The notes: a model not told the origin generated them from the sequence alone. Shown: positions 22,870-30,950, counted from the stretch's first letter. The stretch is 64,000 bases of DNA from Armatimonadota bacterium (GCA_020354555.1 CP070648.1:710656-774655); one strand, 5' to 3'. Numbers and translations are program-made.

Positions 22870-23973
22870 ATGACACCGTCACCACGCCGCACAAGGAAAT
22901 CGACATCGCCGTGGACGCTCATTGCGCTGCTCGCGCTCGTTATCGTAGCCCTGTGGTGGATGTCGAGAGAGCCGCGCGGCTCTGGGCCGTCCCCGACGGG
23001 TGGCCCATCCGGCGACCGTCCCTCCCATCCCGGCGCCGTGCAACCGCCTGGGCACGGTCGCTCCCACGGATCTCCGGACGCATCGGGGTCCGCGACCTCC
23101 GCCTCGGAATCTCGCAGGGATCTGCCAGATTCATCACTAGCAGGCCGCGGCCCGCTGCCGGACACCCAGTGGCAACCGCAGCGACCGCTCCTTCCTGCCG
23201 CGCCCGGCCGCGTCGCGATCATCGTTGACGACGTCGGCTACAACGACGGCGCGCTCGACGGCTTTGCGGAGGTGGATTTCCCGTTGACCTTCTCCGTGCT
23301 TCCCCAACTCGACGACTCGCGGCGACTGGCGCGCGCCTGCGCGGCCGCCGGGTTCGAAGTCATGCTCCACCTGCCGATGCAGCCGAGGAACTCGGATCTC
23401 GATCCCGGACCCGGCTGCGTCATGGTCGAGATGACCGACGACGAGATTGCCGAGCTAGTGGAGCGGAACCTGACCAGCGTCCCGGGCGCGGTGGGCGCCA
23501 ACAACCACATGGGGTCGCTGGCAACCGCCGACGAACGGGTAATAACCGCCGCGCTGTCCGTGCTGCGCCGACACGGTCTGTTTTTCGTGGATAGTCTCAC
23601 GACCGGCGGCAGCGTGGCGGAGGAAGCGGCCGCCGAGGTCGGCATTCCCTACGCCGAGCGGAGCGTCTTCCTCGACACGAATTTCACGCCCGAGCCGACG
23701 ACCACGGAGGAGTTCTGCGAGGCGGCGCAGGAGCGCGTGCAGCAGTTGGGGCGCATCGCGCAGCGCCGCGGTTCAGCGATCGGCATTTGCCACTACCGGC
23801 CGCAGACGGCGCAGATGCTCGGCCTCATCCTGCCCGCGCTCGAGGAATCCGGCGTCGCAGTGGTAAGCGTATCGAACGTGATGTCGGGGGCGAGCCGAAG
23901 CGTGTCACCGACGCGCCCCGGCGCCGCGCCGAGAGCAGAGCCGGGAACTCACGAGCCCGCGCGCGACCGCTGA
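22870..23973 (+). CDS. Divergent polysaccharide deacetylase-family protein (YibQ-like)
   Basis: The protein has an N-terminal transmembrane segment (WTLIALLALVIVALWWM) and a low-complexity linker. The YibQ-type domain is VAIIVDDVGYNDGALDGFAEVDFPLTFSVLPQLDDSRRLARACAAAGFEVMLHLPMQP...NNHMGS...GLFFVDSLTTGGSVA. Confidence 0.75.
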   Translation: MTPSPRRTRKSTSPWTLIALLALVIVALWWMSREPRGSGPSPTGGPSGDRPSHPGAVQPPGHGRSHGSPDASGSATSASESRRDLPDSSLAGRGPLPDTQWQPQRPLLPAAPGRVAIIVDDVGYNDGALDGFAEVDFPLTFSVLPQLDDSRRLARACAAAGFEVMLHLPMQPRNSDLDPGPGCVMVEMTDDEIAELVERNLTSVPGAVGANNHMGSLATADERVITAALSVLRRHGLFFVDSLTTGGSVAEEAAAEVGIPYAERSVFLDTNFTPEPTTTEEFCEAAQERVQQLGRIAQRRGSAIGICHYRPQTAQMLGLILPALEESGVAVVSVSNVMSGASRSVSPTRPGAAPRAEPGTHEPARDR

Positions 23974-25175
23974 AGCCGACGTTTCTGGACCGCTTCGTGC
24001 ATCGCCGCCCGATGCACCGGGTGCACGTTCTCCACGATCCACTCGCGCATTTCGCGCCCGGCTTCGGTCTGCTGCGGGTACGACATGAATCCCAACTCGA
24101 CGCCCAACGCCTGAGCCGCATCGTAGGCCACAAGCGGCCAGATGACGCCGATATCGCCGATGACGGGCAGGCTCGTCGGCAGGCGCGCGAACCCCGACAT
24201 TTCCATGCGGAAGGGCACGCCCGTGACCTTGGTCTTCGGCAGGCCCTTGGCGACCGCCGCGGCGACGGTGCCAGAGTCGCGCTCCATCTGCCACGCGCGC
24301 TCCAGGTTCGGGTCGAGGTCAATGCGGATGAGCTGCTTGCCCGCCAGCGAGTAGGTCGCGAAGCCGTCCCAGTCGGCCCAGATACCGTGCCCGGTGTGCG
24401 TCTCGAACGGACCGTCGTGAATCTCCTGGGTCAGGGCCACTGCCGACTCGATGATGACGTCGGCTTCGCCGAGCAGTGCGGCGACGCGGGCGGCGCGCGC
24501 GGTGATTGAAATGCTGTCGCCGACCGCGAGGCCCACCGCGCCCCCGCCCACCAACTGCGGGATACTCACCAGCACCGGCGCACCCCGCGCGTATCCCGCG
24601 CCGATCATGGTGTGTGAATCAGCGCCGGCGCCGGCTATTGCCTCCAGAGGATCACCGACGGATTTCGCAAGCGCCTCCGCCTCACGCGCGAGGCGCTCGG
24701 TGCGCAGTCCCAGCGGGTATGCCAGGTTCCCCGCCGCCTTGATGATGTTCGCGCCCTCCGTCGCCAGCGCGCGATCCATGAGGTCGCGCTCCACCGGCAT
24801 TTCCGCTTCGATCGTTTCGAGCCAGCCGTCGGGCAGCAGCGAGATCTCGAACATGCCGTCCATCGGCAGTGCTGCGGCGTCGAGGCCGAGCGGCTCGCCG
24901 CGCACACGATGCACGCGCTCCAGCGTTCCCGCCATCTCGTGGGCGATCGCGGCGGACGACGTCGTCACGCCGTCCACGATGCCGGTACGAATCAGCTCCG
25001 CCAGCAGCGTCGTCACGCCCTCATGCAGATTCGGCCCGCTGCCGGTGACGACGACGACCTTGCCGCCCTTCTGCTTGGCGGCGACGATGGCGGCGACGGC
25101 CTTGCCGATGCGCTCGCGCACATCCGCATCCAGCTCCGCGCGCAACGCCTCGATTACACCTTTGTCAACTGACAC
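23949..25175 (-). CDS. Deoxyhypusine synthase-like (DHS/homospermidine synthase superfamily) protein
   Basis: The segment VVVTGSGPNLHEGVTTLLAELIRTGIVDGVTTSSAAI aligns to the DHS NAD-binding signature T-S-N-L-x3-G-x-R-E-x(n)-V-D-x-x-V-T-T-x-G-G. At 408 aa the protein is longer than canonical DHS. Confidence 0.5.
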   Translation of the reverse strand: MSVDKGVIEALRAELDADVRERIGKAVAAIVAAKQKGGKVVVVTGSGPNLHEGVTTLLAELIRTGIVDGVTTSSAAIAHEMAGTLERVHRVRGEPLGLDAAALPMDGMFEISLLPDGWLETIEAEMPVERDLMDRALATEGANIIKAAGNLAYPLGLRTERLAREAEALAKSVGDPLEAIAGAGADSHTMIGAGYARGAPVLVSIPQLVGGGAVGLAVGDSISITARAARVAALLGEADVIIESAVALTQEIHDGPFETHTGHGIWADWDGFATYSLAGKQLIRIDLDPNLERAWQMERDSGTVAAAVAKGLPKTKVTGVPFRMEMSGFARLPTSLPVIGDIGVIWPLVAYDAAQALGVELGFMSYPQQTEAGREMREWIVENVHPVHRAAMHEAVQKRRLQRSRAGS

Positions 25176-25425: not shown

Positions 25426-26163
25426 ATGGCACAAGTCATCGGCATCATTCCCGCCCGCTACGGGTCAACGCGCTTCCCCGGCAAGCCGCTGGCCGACCTC
25501 TTGGGCAAGCCGATGATTCAGCACGTCTACGAGCGCTCGAGCAAGGCGCGCTGCCTGGAACGACTGCTGGTGGCCACCGACGACCAGCGCATCCTCGACG
25601 CCGTGGCCGCGTTCGGCGGCGAGGCCGTCATGACCAGCCCCGATCACCCGACCGGGACGGATCGCTTAGCCGAAGCAGCCGCCGAACTGGCCGTCGAGAT
25701 CGTCGTCAACATCCAGGGCGACGAGCCGCTCATCGAGCCTTCCGTTATTGACGCCCTTGCCGCGCCTCTCATCGAGGACTCGTCCATTCCCATGGGCACG
25801 CTCATGTCGCGCATCACCGAGCCCGCGGACCTGCACGACCCCAACGTGGTCAAGGTCGTGGTTGACCGGAACAGCTTCGCCCTCTACTTCTCGCGCACGC
25901 TCATCCCCTATGCGCGAGAGGTGAAGACCGAAGACGTGATGTACTACTACCATCCCGGACTATACGTGTACCGCAAGGACTTCCTGCTCACCTATGCCTC
26001 TCTGCCGCCGACGCCGCTGGAGAAGACCGAGAAGCTGGAGCAGCTGCGGGCGATGGAGCACGGTTACCGTATCAAGGTCGTCGAGACCGCGCACCGCCCG
26101 GTGAGCGTGGACACGCCCCACGACCTCGAGCACGTCAAACACCTCATGCAGCGCGGGCGGTGA
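25426..26163 (+). CDS. kdsB: 3-deoxy-manno-octulosonate cytidylyltransferase (CMP-Kdo synthetase)
   Basis: The ORF runs 25222..26163. The start is the ATG at 25426 (MAQVIGIIPARYGSTRFPGKPLADLLGKPMIQHVYERS...). KdsB motifs are present: VNIQGDEPLIEP, YHPGLYVYRKDFL and EKLEQLRAMEHGYRIKVV. Confidence 0.9.
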   Translation: MAQVIGIIPARYGSTRFPGKPLADLLGKPMIQHVYERSSKARCLERLLVATDDQRILDAVAAFGGEAVMTSPDHPTGTDRLAEAAAELAVEIVVNIQGDEPLIEPSVIDALAAPLIEDSSIPMGTLMSRITEPADLHDPNVVKVVVDRNSFALYFSRTLIPYAREVKTEDVMYYYHPGLYVYRKDFLLTYASLPPTPLEKTEKLEQLRAMEHGYRIKVVETAHRPVSVDTPHDLEHVKHLMQRGR

Positions 26164-26326
26164 AGGCTCAGGCGGCGCTCGCAGAGCAGTCGCCGTCTGC
26201 CCGCGCGGCTTCGGCGGAGTGGCCCCGGCTGTGTGCTCCCGATAGATGCTGACGTCTGAGGCGCTCCGCCGCGCCGTGTCGTCACGAAGTCCAGTAACCC
26301 CGCGTCCTTGCCCCTGCGTATAGCCA

Positions 26327-28270
26327 GTGATGAAACAGTGGCACTCCCGAGACAACGCGATCCAGTTGCCGAAGGCCGCGCGGGCGTCGCTGACGGTAGT
26401 GACGGTGAGCGCCGTGCTGGCAGTCGGGTGCGGCGGGACGTGCGGCGGGTCGCGACCGGCGCCGCTCACCGCGCCTGCGCCCGTCGCCGCGCCGGAGCCA
26501 GCCCGTGAGCAACCGCCCCAGCCAGGTGGGGTCTCCTTATCCGATCTCCCGGCCCTGCCGACCGGCGAGGACTTGAAATCCGCTCTCGAGCTTCCCATGC
26601 GTTCGCGGGTCGCGCCCCTGACCATGCAGTACTGGGGCGAGCAGGCATCGGGCGAGGTCCTCCTCGATTCGCTCGCTGAGGAGCCGTTGTTCCCGCAGTT
26701 TGACCGGGTGACATGGCACCGCTGGCTGAGCGACGGATCTCTCGTGCTCCTAAACGGCGACCGGCTGTACCGCGTTCATCCATCTGGCGACTCGCGGTTG
26801 CTCGCGGCGGTCGGCGAGCCGGATCTGCCGCCCAGGCTGTCGCCGGACGGGCGATGGGTCGCGGTAGCGCTGGGACGCAGCATCACCTTCGTTCCGACCG
26901 ACGGCGGCCCGGTAAGGCGCCTGCCGCAGCCGGGCTGGGTGCACAGCATCGGCTGGCACCCCGACAGCACGCGCCTTGCGTTCAATGCCAGCAACCGCAT
27001 CTGTGTGGCAACGACCGCGGGGGACGTGAGAGTGCTGGAAACGGAGGCGCCAACAGTCCAGGCCTGGTGGGGCGCGCCCGTCACCCTTGCGAACGTCCCT
27101 CAGATCGAGTGGTCTGCCGATGGGACGCGTCTGGCATACCGCCTGGTGTACCGTGCCGAGAGCGCACCGCGCGACTGCGCTGACTACCAATATGACTCTC
27201 GCGTAGTGGCGTTGCACGGCGAGCAGCGAGAGATGGTCATGACGGGTGGTTACTCGCCCGAGGATGGTCTCTTTTCCTGGGCCACAGCCGGATACGTAGT
27301 AGCGTACACGGGCAACTTCGGCGAACCGGATACGTGGTGCAACCTGTGGACGCCGCATGGGCGGGGGTCGGTCGCGATCTCGGGCACCGTGCTGAGCTAC
27401 CGCCGTACCGCCTGGCATCCACGTGACGGGGTGCTCGCCGTCGAGGAACACTGGTTTGGGCCTGAAGCTGCGCGCCAATTCGGTCCCGTCGCGCCGACGA
27501 CTCAGTTGGCGTTCTTTACCATTCCTCAAGCCAGTGGCCGAAGTGTGCGCGAAGACGACTGGCCCGACTTCGAATGGGCACCAACGGGCCGCGCATTCGT
27601 GATGCGGCGCAAATGCGCTTACGTCGCACAGGGCCGCAAGACCGCCCACCAGGTCACCGGCAACGACATCGGCGATTTCGCAATCACGGGGAGTGCAATG
27701 AGCGGCGAGTTTGCGCAGATGGCGCCACTCGACGTCACGATCACTGGCGTACAGTGGACACCACTGCGGAGCGCCGTCAGTTTCGAGCGGAAATCGGCGC
27801 CAGACAGGTCCGTCCTTTGCGTGGCACCCGTCACGAGGAATCGGAGCGGCGCGACCCACGCTCGCCGGTGGCTGGCCGCGGGCAAAGAACTTCGACGCTC
27901 CGGGAATATCGAAGAGGCTACGATCTGCTTCCGCAACGCTGTCCGATGCGAGCCGGATTGGGCGGAACCGCGCGTCCGCCTAGCCCAGTGCTATCTCGAC
28001 CTCAGCGCGCGAGAGACGAATCCCGCGTGCATGGCGTGGCTGCTCGACGGCGCAGAGTTCGAGACGCAACGCGCGGCGAAGCTGACCACGCTGTCAGACG
28101 ACAGCTTGCACCTTCGCACGGTCATCGCCAGGCGCCGCGAGCATGCTAGTGCCGCGCTAAGCATCTCCGCCGGGCGCTGGTGGGGCAGGAGCATCGCTCC
28201 TGGTGCTCCGCTGTACGCCGACGATCCGGAGACATTCGGCCGACCGTTCGGTGGGCCTGGGAACAAATGA
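26327..28270 (+). CDS. Lipoprotein with PD40/TolB-like beta-propeller and C-terminal TPR-like region
   Basis: The lipobox is VLAVGC. A Pro/Ala-rich linker is followed by PD40-type repeats (LSPDGRWVAVALGRSITFVPTDGGPVRRL...WHPDSTRLAFNASNRICVA; WSADGTRLAYRL). The C-terminal helical region is ATICFRNAVRCEPDWAEPRVRLAQCYLDL. Confidence 0.75.
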   Translation: MMKQWHSRDNAIQLPKAARASLTVVTVSAVLAVGCGGTCGGSRPAPLTAPAPVAAPEPAREQPPQPGGVSLSDLPALPTGEDLKSALELPMRSRVAPLTMQYWGEQASGEVLLDSLAEEPLFPQFDRVTWHRWLSDGSLVLLNGDRLYRVHPSGDSRLLAAVGEPDLPPRLSPDGRWVAVALGRSITFVPTDGGPVRRLPQPGWVHSIGWHPDSTRLAFNASNRICVATTAGDVRVLETEAPTVQAWWGAPVTLANVPQIEWSADGTRLAYRLVYRAESAPRDCADYQYDSRVVALHGEQREMVMTGGYSPEDGLFSWATAGYVVAYTGNFGEPDTWCNLWTPHGRGSVAISGTVLSYRRTAWHPRDGVLAVEEHWFGPEAARQFGPVAPTTQLAFFTIPQASGRSVREDDWPDFEWAPTGRAFVMRRKCAYVAQGRKTAHQVTGNDIGDFAITGSAMSGEFAQMAPLDVTITGVQWTPLRSAVSFERKSAPDRSVLCVAPVTRNRSGATHARRWLAAGKELRRSGNIEEATICFRNAVRCEPDWAEPRVRLAQCYLDLSARETNPACMAWLLDGAEFETQRAAKLTTLSDDSLHLRTVIARRREHASAALSISAGRWWGRSIAPGAPLYADDPETFGRPFGGPGNK

Positions 28271-30180
28271 GAGGACCCCAACTGCGATTGGACGACGGCG
28301 AAGGGCGTCGGGCGTGGCTCCGTAGACTGCTCCACCTGTGCGTCCTACTGGCCGTATGCTCAGTGGCAGTCGGGTGCGGCGGGTCGCGACCGGCGCCGCT
28401 GACCGCGCCTGCACCCGTCGCCGCGCCGGAGCCAGCCCGTGAGCAACCGCCCCAGCCAGGTGGGGTCTCCTTATCTGATCTCCCGGCCCTGCCGACCGGC
28501 GAGGATTTGAAATCCGCTCTCGAGCTTCCCATGCGCTCGCGGGTGGCGCCGTTGACCATGCATTACTGGGGCGTAATCACGAACGGTCGCGTGTCGCTTG
28601 ACTCGCTGGCGGAGGAGCGCCTGTGTCCTCAGTTCGACCGCGTGCGCTGGCACCGCTGGCTGCCGGATGGATCGCTGGTGATTCTGAATGGCGACCGGTT
28701 GTATCGCGTTCATCCATCTGGCGACTCGCGGTTGCTCGCGGCGGTCGGCGAGCCGGAGGTGCAGCCCAGGCTGTCGCCGGACGGGCGATGGGTCGCGGTA
28801 GCGCTGGGACGCAGCGTTACCTTCGTTCCGACCGCCGGCGGCCCGGTAAGGCGCCTGCCCCAGCCCGGATGGGTGCACAGCATCGGCTGGCACCCCGACA
28901 GCACGCGCCTTGCGTTCAATGCCAGCAACCGCATCTGTGTGGCCGAGACTGGCGGAGCCGTTGAGACGCTTCGCGTAGAGCCCGTTAGGCGGCCAGCGGA
29001 ATGGGAGGGCGATGCGGCGCTCTGGAAAGTGCCCCAGGTCGAATGGTCGGCCGATGGCCGCCTGCTTGCCTACCGCCTGATACTCAAGAGCAAGAACGTA
29101 CACGGCGAGATTGACTACGAGACTCGGCTTTCTGTCCTCGGGCCGCGCGGCAAGACCTGGGAGCACATCTCCTCCAGCTTCGGGCAAGAGGACGGTCTGT
29201 TCTCGTGGGCGCTTGGAGGAGACGTGTTAGCGTGGACCGGCACTGGCGGCGACGTCCACTCGGCCGGCTTTCTGTGGACGCCTCGCGGGAGTTCGGAAGT
29301 GGTGGAGACAGGGACAGAGCCGACCTTCTATCACACCGCGTGGCAGCCCCACGGGGAACTGCTTGCGGTGGAGGCGATGTACAGCGCCGGGGAATCGGAA
29401 ATGTTCGGAGCCGCCAGCACGTTCCACGACGTGGATCTGGTCGCAATCGCGGGAATCCCTCGCGGCGCCGCGCGCGAGGATGGATGGACAGAGTTCGAAT
29501 GGGCCGGCTCGGGAAGCGCGTTCGCCGCCGCAGTGAGGGCTCGCGCGCGCGTGCCCGATCCGAAGACTCGCTACTATCGCCTTCAGGCCGTTGGTGATTT
29601 CCCGATGGCCGGGAATCCGAAGGCAAACGCAGTGGTGCAAATAGCGCAGCTCGGGGGCGACGTCACCGACATGCAGTGGCAACCCGGTGAACGCGCGGTG
29701 ACCTATGTCCGACAACTCGGCGGGCGCCAGTCGAGGCTGTTCTCCGCCGCGATCACGCACAGCGCTGCCGGGCGTGAAGAGGTCCGCCGCCGACTCGCCG
29801 AAGGAGATGCGTCGTACCGCCAGGGCCGCTTCGAGGATGCCGCCATCCACTTCCGCAACGCGGTTCGCTGCGCGCCCGACTGGTCGGAACCGCGCGTCCG
29901 CTTAGCCCAGTGTTACCTCGACCTCAGCGAGCGCGAGACGAATCCCGCGTGCATGGCGTGGTTGCTCGACGGAGCAGGATTCGAGCTCCGCCGCGCCGGG
30001 TCACTCGCGCACGTCTCCGAGGTGGATGAGCGCATAGACATCATTATCGCGGCGCGCCGCGCCCACCTCAATGAGGCCCTGGGCGTCCGTACCGGCGAGC
30101 GCTGGTCGTGGGATTACAACCTGAGCCCGCGCACGCCGAGCTGGCGACCGCAGCCCGTCGAACTGTCCCCCGGTGAATAG
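28267..30180 (+). CDS. Paralogous PD40 beta-propeller/TPR lipoprotein, a tandem duplicate of the upstream gene
   Basis: The likely start is the ATG at 28267, overlapping the upstream stop as ATGA (MRGPQLRLDDGEGRRAWLRRLLHLCVLLAVCSVAVGC). The ORF track begins at 28180. It has the same architecture as the upstream gene and shares long blocks of identical protein and nucleotide sequence with it. Confidence 0.75.
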   Translation: MRGPQLRLDDGEGRRAWLRRLLHLCVLLAVCSVAVGCGGSRPAPLTAPAPVAAPEPAREQPPQPGGVSLSDLPALPTGEDLKSALELPMRSRVAPLTMHYWGVITNGRVSLDSLAEERLCPQFDRVRWHRWLPDGSLVILNGDRLYRVHPSGDSRLLAAVGEPEVQPRLSPDGRWVAVALGRSVTFVPTAGGPVRRLPQPGWVHSIGWHPDSTRLAFNASNRICVAETGGAVETLRVEPVRRPAEWEGDAALWKVPQVEWSADGRLLAYRLILKSKNVHGEIDYETRLSVLGPRGKTWEHISSSFGQEDGLFSWALGGDVLAWTGTGGDVHSAGFLWTPRGSSEVVETGTEPTFYHTAWQPHGELLAVEAMYSAGESEMFGAASTFHDVDLVAIAGIPRGAAREDGWTEFEWAGSGSAFAAAVRARARVPDPKTRYYRLQAVGDFPMAGNPKANAVVQIAQLGGDVTDMQWQPGERAVTYVRQLGGRQSRLFSAAITHSAAGREEVRRRLAEGDASYRQGRFEDAAIHFRNAVRCAPDWSEPRVRLAQCYLDLSERETNPACMAWLLDGAGFELRRAGSLAHVSEVDERIDIIIAARRAHLNEALGVRTGERWSWDYNLSPRTPSWRPQPVELSPGE

Positions 30181-30207: not shown

Positions 30208-30825
30208 TCACGTGATCAGGTTCGCCGGCAGGTGCGCGGTGCGGTTCTGGAAGACCATCTTCGCGCGGCCGGGGAGCACCTCGATGACGCTGATACAGCA
30301 GTTGGACTGGCTGAACCGCGTGGAGCCGCACGGCGGCGCGCCGAGGAACCGGCTCATCAGGATCGCACCGAACGTGCCGTGGCCGACCAAGGCCACCCGC
30401 GCCTCCGTCGCCTCGAACCTCCTGCGCATCGCCTCTTCGACGCGCGCGGCGCGGACATATGCAGCCGGTTCATCCTCGGGCAGCTTCTCCGGCCACCACC
30501 GCTCCGGCATGTCAGCGGGCAGGATCACCTCCGGCCACCGGCGCACGATATCGCTGCGAGTGACTACGTCACAGCGGGAGCCCCACTTCTCCGCGAGGTC
30601 CGGCCACGCGCTGATCGACAGCCCCAGCGTCGCAGAGATCTCGGACGCGGTCTCCAGCGCCCGCGTCAGCGGGCTCGCGCGCAGCGCCTCGATGCCCTCG
30701 TCCGCCAGCGCCTGCGCCACCAGCTTCGCCTGCCGCCAGCCGCGCTCGGTCAGTGCTGGATCGTCGGAGTGGTCGGTGCCGGCGTTGCCGCCGGATTCAC
30801 CGTGTCGGATGAGATACAGACGCAT
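30208..30825 (-). CDS. Histidine phosphatase-family protein (phosphoglycerate mutase-like)
   Basis: The start is the ATG at 30825 (MRLYLIRHGESGGN...). The RHG catalytic motif, TERGWRQA, and the C-terminal VALVGHGTF with the second catalytic His are present. Confidence 0.8.
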   Translation of the reverse strand: MRLYLIRHGESGGNAGTDHSDDPALTERGWRQAKLVAQALADEGIEALRASPLTRALETASEISATLGLSISAWPDLAEKWGSRCDVVTRSDIVRRWPEVILPADMPERWWPEKLPEDEPAAYVRAARVEEAMRRRFEATEARVALVGHGTFGAILMSRFLGAPPCGSTRFSQSNCCISVIEVLPGRAKMVFQNRTAHLPANLIT

Positions 30826-30950
30826 TGGGTGCTCACAACATCGCCACCAGCGGCACAGCATGTGGCTAGGCTGAGCCGCCACCCCGGCCCGAAGGGCTTA
30901 AGGGCCTGTGCCCCTACGTGCCGGCCTGTGTAGGGTACCCGGACAGCCGC

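Follow-up and report, generated by a model that had tools for sequence, protein, structure and literature searches.

Two adjacent genes in an Armatimonadota genome are nearly identical in DNA sequence over three blocks and far less alike elsewhere, which raises the question of how such a mosaic came about and what it says of the encoded proteins. The original prediction, made for the window (the whole 64-kb stretch of DNA analyzed here), attributed the pattern to ongoing gene conversion between tandem duplicates whose ligand-facing propeller blades were diversifying.

A tandem pair of putative lipoprotein genes

The pair lies between genes for a kdsB-like cytidylyltransferase and a histidine phosphatase, and its neighbors in the window also include a radical SAM protein and an S41 protease. 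The locus comprises the following features:

25426-26163, + strand: kdsB-like cytidylyltransferase, left flank of the locus, conserved in all relatives
26330-28270, + strand: gene 1, 646 aa when started at the ATG of 26330; putative lipoprotein (linker, propeller, TPR-like domain)
26330-26431, + strand: gene 1 signal peptide with lipobox VLAVGC (Cys34), by PROSITE-type lipobox pattern
28267-30180, + strand: gene 2, 637 aa; architecture as in gene 1, with a "type B" center
28267-28377, + strand: gene 2 signal peptide with lipobox SVAVGC (Cys37), by PROSITE-type lipobox pattern
30208-30882, - strand: histidine phosphatase (His_Phos_1), right flank of the locus, conserved in relatives

Gene 1 starts at the family-conserved ATG at 26330 ("VMK" start), one codon past the GTG at 26327 given as the start in the ORF list; the public annotation sets the starts of both genes too late and misses the lipoprotein signals. 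The stop codon of gene 1 and the ATG of gene 2 overlap as ATGA at 28267-28270 on the + strand (GAACAAATGAGAGGA at 28261-28275), and a promoter and terminator scan detected neither a terminator-like site nor a promoter between the genes, so that their cotranscription is likely. The GC content of the genes (0.67) equals that of the window, indicating native composition, and no further copies of any gene segment are present within the 64 kb. Bases 28270-28363 form a leader unique to gene 2, without a homolog in gene 1 or the related loci; comparisons with the spacer between kdsB and gene 1, the downstream spacer, and every related locus revealed no similarity indicative of the origin of this leader or of the tandem junction. 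The 227 nt upstream of the gene of the relative L010 are likewise unrelated to the leader and junction.

Both proteins match Pfam PD40 (PF07676) above the gathering cut-off of 20.9 bits, at 25.6 and 28.5 bits, and contain PD40-type repeat motifs ("SPDGRWVA," "WHPDS," and "EWSADG"); matches to TPR_14, TPR_2, and TPR_16 reach 15-20 bits, below the respective cut-offs of 23.5-32.7. In the AlphaFold (AF2) models, a predicted propeller of ~8 four-stranded blades (residues 118-500 in gene 1 and 108-500 in gene 2) is followed by five antiparallel helices at residues 503-610; the gene 2 model has a pLDDT of 82 and a pTM of 0.80, with pLDDT ≥90 over most of the protein. Foldseek matches to the models were all propellers, corresponding to generic propeller-plus-solenoid scaffolds, with 8-bladed DPP-IV propellers among the best structural matches (TM-score ~0.38). 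A disordered Pro/Ala tether of ~70 aa separates the predicted lipid anchor from the propeller. The lipobox (PROSITE PS51257-type) is matched in 7 of the 8 family members, namely gene 1, gene 2, and 5 of the 6 relatives; the lipobox Cys at position 37 in gene 2, L001, and L007 lies slightly past the usual limit of 35. The ORFs, lipobox pattern, Pfam matches, and AF2 models thus bear out the predicted tandem paralogs, their ATGA overlap, the lipoprotein signals, and the combination of a PD40 propeller with a TPR-like domain. The suggested TolB-like function is not supported. The PD40-type motifs and confidently predicted propeller do resemble those of TolB and other PD40 periplasmic proteins, but the predicted lipid anchor with its long tether and the C-terminal TPR-like domain are unlike TolB; in the proteins we found neither the N-terminal domain of TolB nor any match specific to TolB in Pfam or NCBIfam, and the locus has no tol-pal neighbors.

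Shared tracts bear the mark of recombination

Gene 1 and gene 2 share three tracts at 90-96% DNA identity, the remainder being 40-65% identical. In the order of the genes, the segments are as follows:

26418-26639, + strand: tract 1, gene 1 copy; lipobox, Pro/Ala linker, and "LPMRSRVAPLTM"; dS 0.11, dN 0
28364-28573, + strand: tract 1, gene 2 copy; homogenized
26640-26770, + strand: N1 segment, gene 1 copy; 74% aa identity, dN 0.22, dS 2.46
28574-28704, + strand: N1 segment, gene 2 copy; counterpart of 26640-26770
26771-27009, + strand: tract 2, gene 1 copy; covers blades 1 and 2 of the propeller and runs into blade 3; 96% identical, dS 0.17
28705-28943, + strand: tract 2, gene 2 copy; homogenized
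27010-27927, + strand: variable center of gene 1, from blade 3 through blade 8 into the first helices; aa identity with gene 2, 27-40%
28944-29849, + strand: variable center of gene 2, a type B cassette; aa identity with L009 and L010, 46-72%
27928-28063, + strand: tract 3, gene 1 copy; TPR-like "FRNAVRC...PRVRLAQCYLDLS..NPACMAWLLDGA"; ~90% identical, dS 0.58
29850-29985, + strand: tract 3, gene 2 copy; homogenized
28064-28270, + strand: variable C-terminal tail of gene 1; nearest match is the tail of L001 (44% aa identity)
29986-30180, + strand: variable C-terminal tail of gene 2; pairs with the L010 tail, bootstrap 99%

The three blocks of the original prediction are therefore real, although its coordinates in the second copy were off by 3 nt for block 2 and by 10 nt for block 3 (the offset between copies is 1934 in tract 2 and 1922 in tract 3). 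In tract 1, the last 200 nt contain 9 mismatches, and gene 1 has an additional 12 nt, a tandem duplication specific to this gene; tract 2 has 9 mismatches over 239 nt. The longest identical run between the genes is 74 nt, against a maximum of 37 nt over 10,000 permutations, and among codons for the same amino acid the longest run of identical third positions spans 46 sites against a permutation maximum of 34 (run-length permutation test, P < 1e-4). Within the variable center of gene 1, the longest run identical to gene 2 is 11 nt.

The copies are set apart segment by segment at silent sites. In the framework, dS is 0.11 in the linker (tract 1), 0.17 in N2 (tract 2), and 0.58 in the TPR segment (tract 3), whereas it reaches 2.46 in N1, 1.9-2.7 in the center, and 1.8 in the tail; similarly, 9% of same-amino-acid codons differ in the linker and 11% in N2, as opposed to 44-62% in N1, center, and tail. 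The center has saturated silent sites (dS above 2), with a dN of 0.57-0.87. N1 is a 43-codon segment between tracts 1 and 2 that occurs as two lineages across the family. Its protein sequence is as conserved as that of the tracts (dN 0.15-0.25 in all pairs), so that discrete tracts of low silent divergence adjoin a segment that is equally constrained yet has a dS of ~2.5. The framework blocks differ by a dS of 0.6-1.5 when compared between genomes, and the linker, with 42-57% aa identity between genomes, is 100% identical between gene 1 and gene 2. By these silent-site contrasts, tract identity stems from recombination rather than from protein constraint, as had been predicted.

That conversion is ongoing, as was also claimed, is not supported: the tracts are of different ages, tract 3 being, on its dS, older than tracts 1 and 2. 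The tracts have no clear excess in GC3 by segment that would indicate GC-biased conversion. Framework identity could have arisen within this genome, through conversion of one copy by the other, or have been inherited from a pool of recombining alleles, routes that are indistinguishable with one tandem genome.

A small family at a single locus

Searches of 5.8 billion protein clusters and 1.84 billion cluster representatives yielded only eight close members of the family, found in Armatimonadota only, and all eight are located at one locus, between kdsB and His_Phos_1; the family comparison accordingly covers eight sequences from about five lineages. A metagenome scan with the family alignment yielded generic PD40 proteins only (25-45% identity over ~100 aa) and no new members, because the pattern SPDGRWVA is too common. 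Scanning GTDB with one genome for each species gave no relative; the species representatives thus lack the family. Distant relatives lie in unrelated gene neighborhoods that have no partner in common, and the gene that follows P0020 downstream is not paralogous to it. The flanks of the locus are housekeeping or envelope genes that give no functional lead. The gene is single-copy at 6 of the 6 other loci, though short-read metagenome contigs could in principle conceal tandem copies there. The original prediction had regarded single-copy orthologous loci as evidence against it; such loci do exist, but the tandem pair itself is not refuted by them.

Alternative cassettes across strains and species

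The relatives L001 and L007 do not differ in kdsB or over the initial ~640 nt of the gene (100% identity), past which identity is 40-50% over ~750 nt, 97-100% over the TPR segment, 40-60% in the tail, and 94-100% in His_Phos_1; overall, their flanks are 98.7% and 97.3% identical. The framework of these single-copy strains is just as identical as that of the tandem pair, with a dS of 0 in linker, N1, and N2. Each allele was recovered in independent assemblies (L001, L002, and L003 for one, L007 and L044 for the other), and the breakpoints between L001 and L007/L044 fall at the framework/cassette borders seen in the tandem pair. Conspecific strains thus have deeply diverged alternative alleles at one locus. 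As the mosaic also occurs between single-copy alleles, where intragenomic conversion is impossible, it appears to be a property of the allele system and not only of the tandem state.

Framework trees group genes by genome, recovering (gene 1, gene 2), (L001, L007), and (L004, L008) at 100% each, whereas center trees group them by type across species, with (gene 2, L009, L010) at 98-100%, (L004, L007) at 100%, and (L001, L008) at 92%; the tail tree unites gene 2 with L010 (99%). The two paralogs hence pair with each other in the converted segments, gene 2 groups with orthologs in the center and tail, and cassette clades cross genome clades, as expected of allele lineages that are common to several species and older than the species split. 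The centers of gene 2 and of L009 and L010 are separated by a dS of 0.75-1.3 and a dN of ~0.2, and His_Phos_1, taken as the baseline for species divergence, gives a close dS of 0.7-0.8 between the same genomes. The center of gene 2 is, by phylogeny and divergence, an ortholog of the L009 and L010 centers from other species, and with silent sites saturated between gene 1 and gene 2, the divergence of their centers predates these species. This runs counter to the claim that the propeller cores diverged in place after duplication. Across the family, dS between cassette types is saturated, as compared to 0.7-1.1 for flanking genes; there are at least four center lineages, and the N1 and tail lineages assort independently. 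The cassette set of gene 1 has no close match among the sampled relatives. Inside one cassette type, dN/dS is ~0.2-0.3, indicative of purifying selection, and divergence is equal in beta-strands (35% identity) and loops (29%), so that the predicted focus of diversification on ligand-facing parts is not supported, and the surface bears no direct signature of positive selection. Because cassettes group across species and alternative cassettes occur in near-identical strains, the variable parts are best described, at the sequence level, as old modular allele lineages shuffled by homologous recombination, two of which are in tandem here. Gene conversion with in-place diversification accounts for only part of this pattern.

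Proposed explanation and its alternatives

The probable explanation, in our assessment, is a modular allele locus with a recombining framework, old trans-species cassettes, a tandem double allele in the window genome, and balanced binding specificity. The kdsB/His_Phos_1 locus would encode a predicted lipid-anchored envelope protein in which a lipobox and tether are followed by a PD40-type propeller of ~8 blades, a TPR-like domain of five helices, and a tail that varies. Its framework segments (linker, blades 1-2, and TPR core) would follow the genome background, homologous recombination holding them near-identical between co-occurring alleles. The near-identical blocks of the tandem pair are such framework segments, with recent common ancestry via RecA-type recombination. 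The cassette segments (N1, three sub-blocks, cen1-3, of blades 3-8, and the tail) would belong to a few deeply diverged lineages that predate the sampled species, are common to several of them, reassort independently, and, with no identical run >15 nt, are too diverged to seed recombination. Most genomes would hold one allele and the window genome two different ones, head to tail as an operon. As for function, we infer an envelope binding protein whose specificity would be set by the variable propeller surface, with the two alleles conferring two specificities on the window strain. The deep shared lineages suggest that alleles may be kept by balancing (negative frequency-dependent) selection, for which the most likely agent would be external, an antagonist or a partner, as in receptor use by phages or bacteriocins or in recognition between cells.

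Alternatively, the genes could be ancient tandem paralogs subject to concerted evolution only, with at least two ancestral copies, intragenomic conversion, and single-copy relatives produced by deletion between the framework repeats. The grouping of the framework by genome fits such a history, direct repeats of 200-240 nt, 96% identical and 1.9 kb apart, would readily mediate deletions, and the products would resemble the observed single genes. We nevertheless judge it unlikely, given that at least four center lineages together with independent N1 and tail lineages would need an ancestral array of at least four copies and many parallel losses, that L001 and L007/L044 differ in cassettes between flanks 97-100% identical, which amounts to within-population polymorphism, that another tandem was seen at none of the 6 loci, and that the unique gene 2 leader is absent from every single-copy gene. 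The source being a MAG, and strain-level alternative alleles at the locus occurring in other metagenomes, two strain alleles of a mixed sample might have been misjoined in tandem; however, a misjoin would have to invent ~300 nt of unique junction while keeping the gene 1 tail, the ATGA overlap, and a new signal peptide with lipobox, and within a contig of 4.88 Mb. Even in the tracts they share, the copies are 4-10% different; neither can therefore be a collapsed or expanded repeat, and an assembly artefact is very unlikely.

Still less probable is that a tandem duplication took place recently and the blades then diverged rapidly through adaptation, the conserved blocks being the parts yet to diverge: the tandem arrangement and the 90-96% identity of the tracts speak for it, but dS is 1.8-2.7, and saturated, in center, N1, and tail compared with 0.11-0.17 in tracts 1-2, and the gene 2 center has nearer counterparts in other species than in gene 1. 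Purifying selection alone, acting on the protein or on a nucleic-acid element within the blocks and with no recombination at all, has next to no probability as the explanation in our view; the blocks do encode the most conserved protein motifs of the family, but so constrained a segment as N1 has a dS of 2.46 between the copies, and both the blocks and the linker diverge between genomes as described above. Two further kinds of mechanism were considered and rejected: a diversity-generating retroelement target, as no extra segment copy is present in the 64-kb window and the differences are saturated at all base types, and silent-cassette or shufflon systems, in view of no extra copies and no significant inverted repeats.

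Relation to known polymorphic surface proteins

Conversion between outer-surface paralogs, tandem or dispersed, and balanced alleles are known from Helicobacter babA/babB, Neisseria opa, and Borrelia ospC-type systems. The modular allele locus resembles these in its silent-site mosaic tracts, segment-wise phylogenetic incongruence, and deep allele lineages kept in populations. Those systems belong to host-associated pathogens under immune pressure, several with silent donor cassettes; unlike the latter, extra cassette copies are absent from this 64-kb window. The lipoprotein gene fHbp, as outlined in PMC3312907 (citing Beernink & Granoff 2009), is composed of variable segments between invariant blocks, with few lineages per segment and recombinant natural chimeras. 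N1, cen1-3, and the tail similarly behave as lineage-typed variable segments. However, fold and organism are unrelated, fHbp being a small beta-barrel protein exposed to immune selection in a host-restricted pathogen, whereas here the invariant blocks are hundreds of nt long, the lineages span species of free-living uncultured Armatimonadota, and two alleles are in tandem in one genome. Myxobacterial TraA, for which many variable-domain allele types at one chromosomal locus set partner specificity between strains (PMC6372800, PMC5562445), offers an analogy for how a polymorphic envelope protein might function in an environmental bacterium. TraA differs in its PA14-like variable domain, its Cys-rich repeats, and its partner TraB; the Pfam matches of neither protein include a TraA-type domain.

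Significance for Armatimonadota

At the sequence level, the locus clearly exemplifies modular allele polymorphism that crosses species, here in free-living bacteria and in a predicted envelope lipoprotein of their core genome; to our knowledge, such polymorphism has until now been known mainly from pathogens under immune selection. It indicates that mosaic identity of tandem paralogs can come from an allele pool, intragenomic conversion not being required, and it provides a strain-typing marker for metagenomes, with the conserved framework supplying primer sites around the variable cassettes. The protein is marked as a likely interface with phages, toxins, or neighboring cells. More tentatively, and with some doubt, the locus might be a specificity (identity) locus for a phage or bacteriocin surface receptor or a homotypic recognition receptor, with cassettes balanced across species and the window genome a natural double-allele strain that would express two specificities from a single operon. 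Hardly any Armatimonadota have been cultured; if this last reading is true, the locus would be the first self/non-self or receptor-type polymorphism described in the phylum, on a previously undescribed protein family.

A tandem gene pair with near-identical DNA tracts

Positions 26327-30180 of the window are filled by two same-strand ORFs, JSV65_03000 (gene 1) and JSV65_03005 (gene 2), located on a 4.88-Mb contig of an Armatimonadota metagenome-assembled genome:

26330-28270 (+), gene 1, propeller lipoprotein
28267-30180 (+), gene 2, propeller lipoprotein, with its ATG overlapping the stop of gene 1 as ATGA at 28267-28270

The encoded proteins are 54% identical in global alignment, and the identity is strongly mosaic. 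Mapping of mismatches defined the borders of three shared tracts:

26418-26639 versus 28364-28573 (+), tract 1, 9 mismatches in the last 200 nt
26771-27009 versus 28705-28943 (+), tract 2, 9 mismatches in 239 nt
27928-28063 versus 29850-29985 (+), tract 3, about 90% identical

The longest identical run between the genes is 74 nt, whereas 10,000 permutations gave at most 37 nt; when only the third positions of same-amino-acid codons are considered, the longest run covers 46 sites against a permutation maximum of 34. The clustering of identity is far beyond chance, and with three tracts mapped and runs exceeding the permutation maxima, the original prediction of tandem paralogs with near-identical DNA blocks is borne out; its block coordinates held for gene 1 but were off by 3 to 10 nt in gene 2. 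Inside tract 1, directly after the lipobox cysteine, 12 nt are duplicated in tandem in gene 1 (window 26425-26448; TGCGGCGGGACG TGCGGCGGGTCG), giving CGGTCGG where gene 2 reads CGG, the result of minor slippage. Opposite both copies of tract 1 lie long antisense ORFs (window 25960-26625 and 28146-28559, both on the minus strand) whose N-terminal halves are identical; we rejected them as genes and consider them by-products of the repeat in DNA of 67% GC.

Protein architecture, family, and locus

The public annotations (557 aa for JSV65_03000 and 542 aa for JSV65_03005) both start late by about 90 codons (window 26327-26600 and 28180-28560) and so lose a signal peptide, a lipobox, and a linker that are conserved family-wide. 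The conserved start lies upstream of the annotated one, where a stop codon is followed by GTG-ATG-AAR, and opens a signal peptide with a terminal lipobox cysteine; a PROSITE-type pattern identifies the lipobox in 7 of the 8 family members. In both proteins, PD40 scored above the Pfam gathering score and TPR matches fell under the gathering cut-offs, whereas the NCBIfam search yielded nothing specific. The AlphaFold models (gene 1, pLDDT 68; gene 2, built from a deeper alignment, pLDDT 82 and pTM 0.80) share a disordered N-terminus of ~70-115 residues, comprising the signal peptide and a Pro/Ala-rich tether, a propeller of about eight four-stranded blades, and, C-terminal to it, five antiparallel helices followed by a disordered tail. 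Foldseek matches in the PDB were limited to propeller-plus-solenoid scaffolds of a generic kind and to 8-bladed DPP-IV propellers, and no catalytic domain was found in either protein by Pfam, NCBIfam, the models, or Foldseek. Taken together, these features point to a scaffold for binding that is tethered in the cell envelope; the protein does not belong to TolB.

When 5.8 billion protein clusters were searched twice, the same eight proteins were the only close members both times, and an HMM scan across all 1.84 billion cluster representatives gave only seven matches below 1e-30. More distant full-length relatives likewise come from Armatimonadota; the family is uncharacterised and confined to this phylum. 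Two of the distant members (L038:4849-7818 and L041:6304-8797) are in unrelated contexts; one distant member is divergent from genes for an HtrA-like PDZ protease, a polysaccharide deacetylase, and a GT4 glycosyltransferase, and another directly follows an MNT/HepT toxin-antitoxin pair.

All close relatives occupy one and the same locus, in the order S41 protease, YibQ-like deacetylase, 408-aa unknown, kdsB, family gene, His_Phos_1, and radical SAM gene, the last two on the strand opposite to the family gene, which is single-copy in every close relative. The 408-aa ORF (window 23952-25175, minus strand) is without a Pfam match but syntenic in all related loci; in NCBIfam, its N-terminal ~70 aa faintly resemble the GSU2086, ornithine cyclodeaminase, and deoxyhypusine synthase families (E 1e-5 to 1e-3). 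At locus L010, the type-B homolog P0005 (725 aa; L010:228-2402) has no lipobox, and about 100 additional residues form a helical region in its N-terminal part, behind a signal-anchor-like segment; the contig begins 227 nt upstream of this gene, where an upstream tandem copy is possible. In the L004 lineage, a gene about 5 kb downstream of this locus (L004:13310-14410, L005:8514-9614) encodes a separate 366-aa PD40/Tricorn-like protein that does not belong to the family. Neither gene neighbourhood nor fold, across the window, its relatives, and Foldseek, offered a further functional lead.

Silent sites separate recombination from constraint

We divided the genes into a framework (linker, N2, and TPR core) and cassettes (N1, centre, and tail) and compared substitution rates for each segment.

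Divergence between gene 1 and gene 2 by segment (Nei-Gojobori), with the share of same-amino-acid codons that use a differing codon
Linker: dS 0.11, dN 0, 9%
N2 (blades 1-2): dS 0.17, dN 0.03, 11%
TPR core: dS 0.58, dN 0.06, 29%
N1 (aa 93-135): dS 2.46, dN 0.22, 44%
Centre: dS 1.9-2.7, dN 0.57-0.87, 56%
Tail: dS 1.8, dN 0.89, 62%

In every pairwise comparison, the N1 protein is conserved like the adjoining tracts, and its silent sites are nonetheless saturated between genes 1 and 2, a contrast that, at the level of sequence, is decisive for recombination over constraint. The linker protein is 42-57% identical between genomes and 100% identical between the two genes. Together, these two contrasts establish a recent shared ancestry of the tracts by homologous recombination; the tracts are of at least two ages.

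Cassettes follow type across genomes

Segment-wise neighbour-joining trees with bootstrap and identity matrices for eight family sequences group the framework segments by genome, with 100% support for genes 1 and 2, for L001 and L007, and for L004 and L008, and the cassettes by type across genomes. Gene 2 joins L009 and L010 (cassette type B) in all three centre sub-blocks (98-100%). Further clades unite L001 and L008 in cen1 (92%), L004 and L007 (100%) as well as gene 1, L001, and L008 (87%) in cen2, and gene 2 and L010 (99%) as well as L004, L008, and L009 (86%) in the tail. N1 comprises two lineages (gene 1, L001, L007, and L010 versus gene 2, L004, L008, and L009), split independently of centre type.

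The centre of gene 2 differs from those of L009 and L010 by a dS of 0.75-1.3 (dN about 0.2), close to that of the flanking His_Phos_1 between the same genomes (0.7-0.8), so it is their ortholog. Silent sites are saturated between cassette types, so the cassette lineages are older than these species. Strands and loops of the variable centre are equally diverged (35% and 29% identity), and dN/dS is about 0.2-0.3 within one cassette type, a pattern that reads as old, individually constrained alternative versions rather than recent loop hypervariation. The comparisons thus show the cassettes to be ancient lineages that reassort. The original prediction had invoked gene conversion between duplicates whose blades diversify, which is right in part: the silent sites uphold recombination as the maker of the blocks, but the variable blades are inherited ancient alleles, not products of post-duplication diversification.

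Alternative alleles of a single-copy gene

The key comparison is between L001 and L007, contigs that both come from a single sediment metagenome series. They are 100% identical throughout kdsB and over the initial ~640 nt of the family gene, after which identity falls to 40-50% over ~750 nt, returns to 97-100% in the TPR core, and drops a second time in the tail; His_Phos_1 is 94-100% identical. Each allele is represented by independent assemblies (L001/L002/L003 and L007/L044), and L004 and L008 repeat the mosaic pattern in a background of 91% identity. The breakpoints coincide with the framework/cassette borders seen in the tandem pair, although their exact positions differ, so the mosaic apparently exists also between alleles of a single-copy gene, where within-genome conversion is impossible. 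The L001/L007 difference reaches into His_Phos_1 (L001:9278-9895 versus L007:4142-4759; dS 0.05, 96% amino-acid identity) and suggests the import of one ~2-kb segment spanning the cassette, the tail, and part of the adjoining gene.

Origin and maintenance of the pair

The silent-site data contradict both a recent duplication followed by rapid divergence and purifying selection acting alone. Differential loss from an ancestral tandem is unlikely, as the ancestor would have needed at least four copies in its array, with losses repeated in parallel many times, and the polymorphism between near-identical strains would stay unexplained. Less probable still is an assembly chimera: the junction is a unique, ORF-preserving sequence, and the tandem pair is most probably real.

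Recombination between framework segments accounts for the borders of the mosaic. No identical run of more than 15 nt between the genes was found in N1, the centre, or the tail, compared with runs of 27-74 nt within the tracts; RecA-type exchange can thus be initiated and resolved only inside the framework, and the borders are sharp and recurrent because of this confinement. Gene 2 is homologous to gene 1 precisely from the lipobox onwards, and its 94-nt leader is without a counterpart among local spacers and related loci, which suggests that the tandem junction may be an illegitimate join. A second allele would have been captured beside the resident one, and later gene conversion or allelic exchange would have kept the framework alike.

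Gene conversion among surface-protein paralogs is a classical phenomenon, which the present case resembles in behaviour only. We chose the closest analogues by behaviour, not homology. As described in one study (PMC3312907), meningococcal fHbp combines modular variable segments from a few lineages with invariant blocks on either side, and this lipoprotein family likewise has lineage-based modular variable segments between conserved blocks. Myxobacterial TraA is a polymorphic recognition receptor (PMC6372800, PMC5562445), and the likeness to receptors of this type is again one of behaviour only.

Direct repeats of 200-240 nt would favour collapse of the pair into a single chimeric gene, yet the pair is retained, which suggests that expressing two types is advantageous. 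That several types have long persisted across species suggests that the binding specificity of the propeller is under balancing, frequency-dependent selection, for which the most plausible causes would be phages or bacteriocins that use the protein as their receptor, or a function in recognition between cells.
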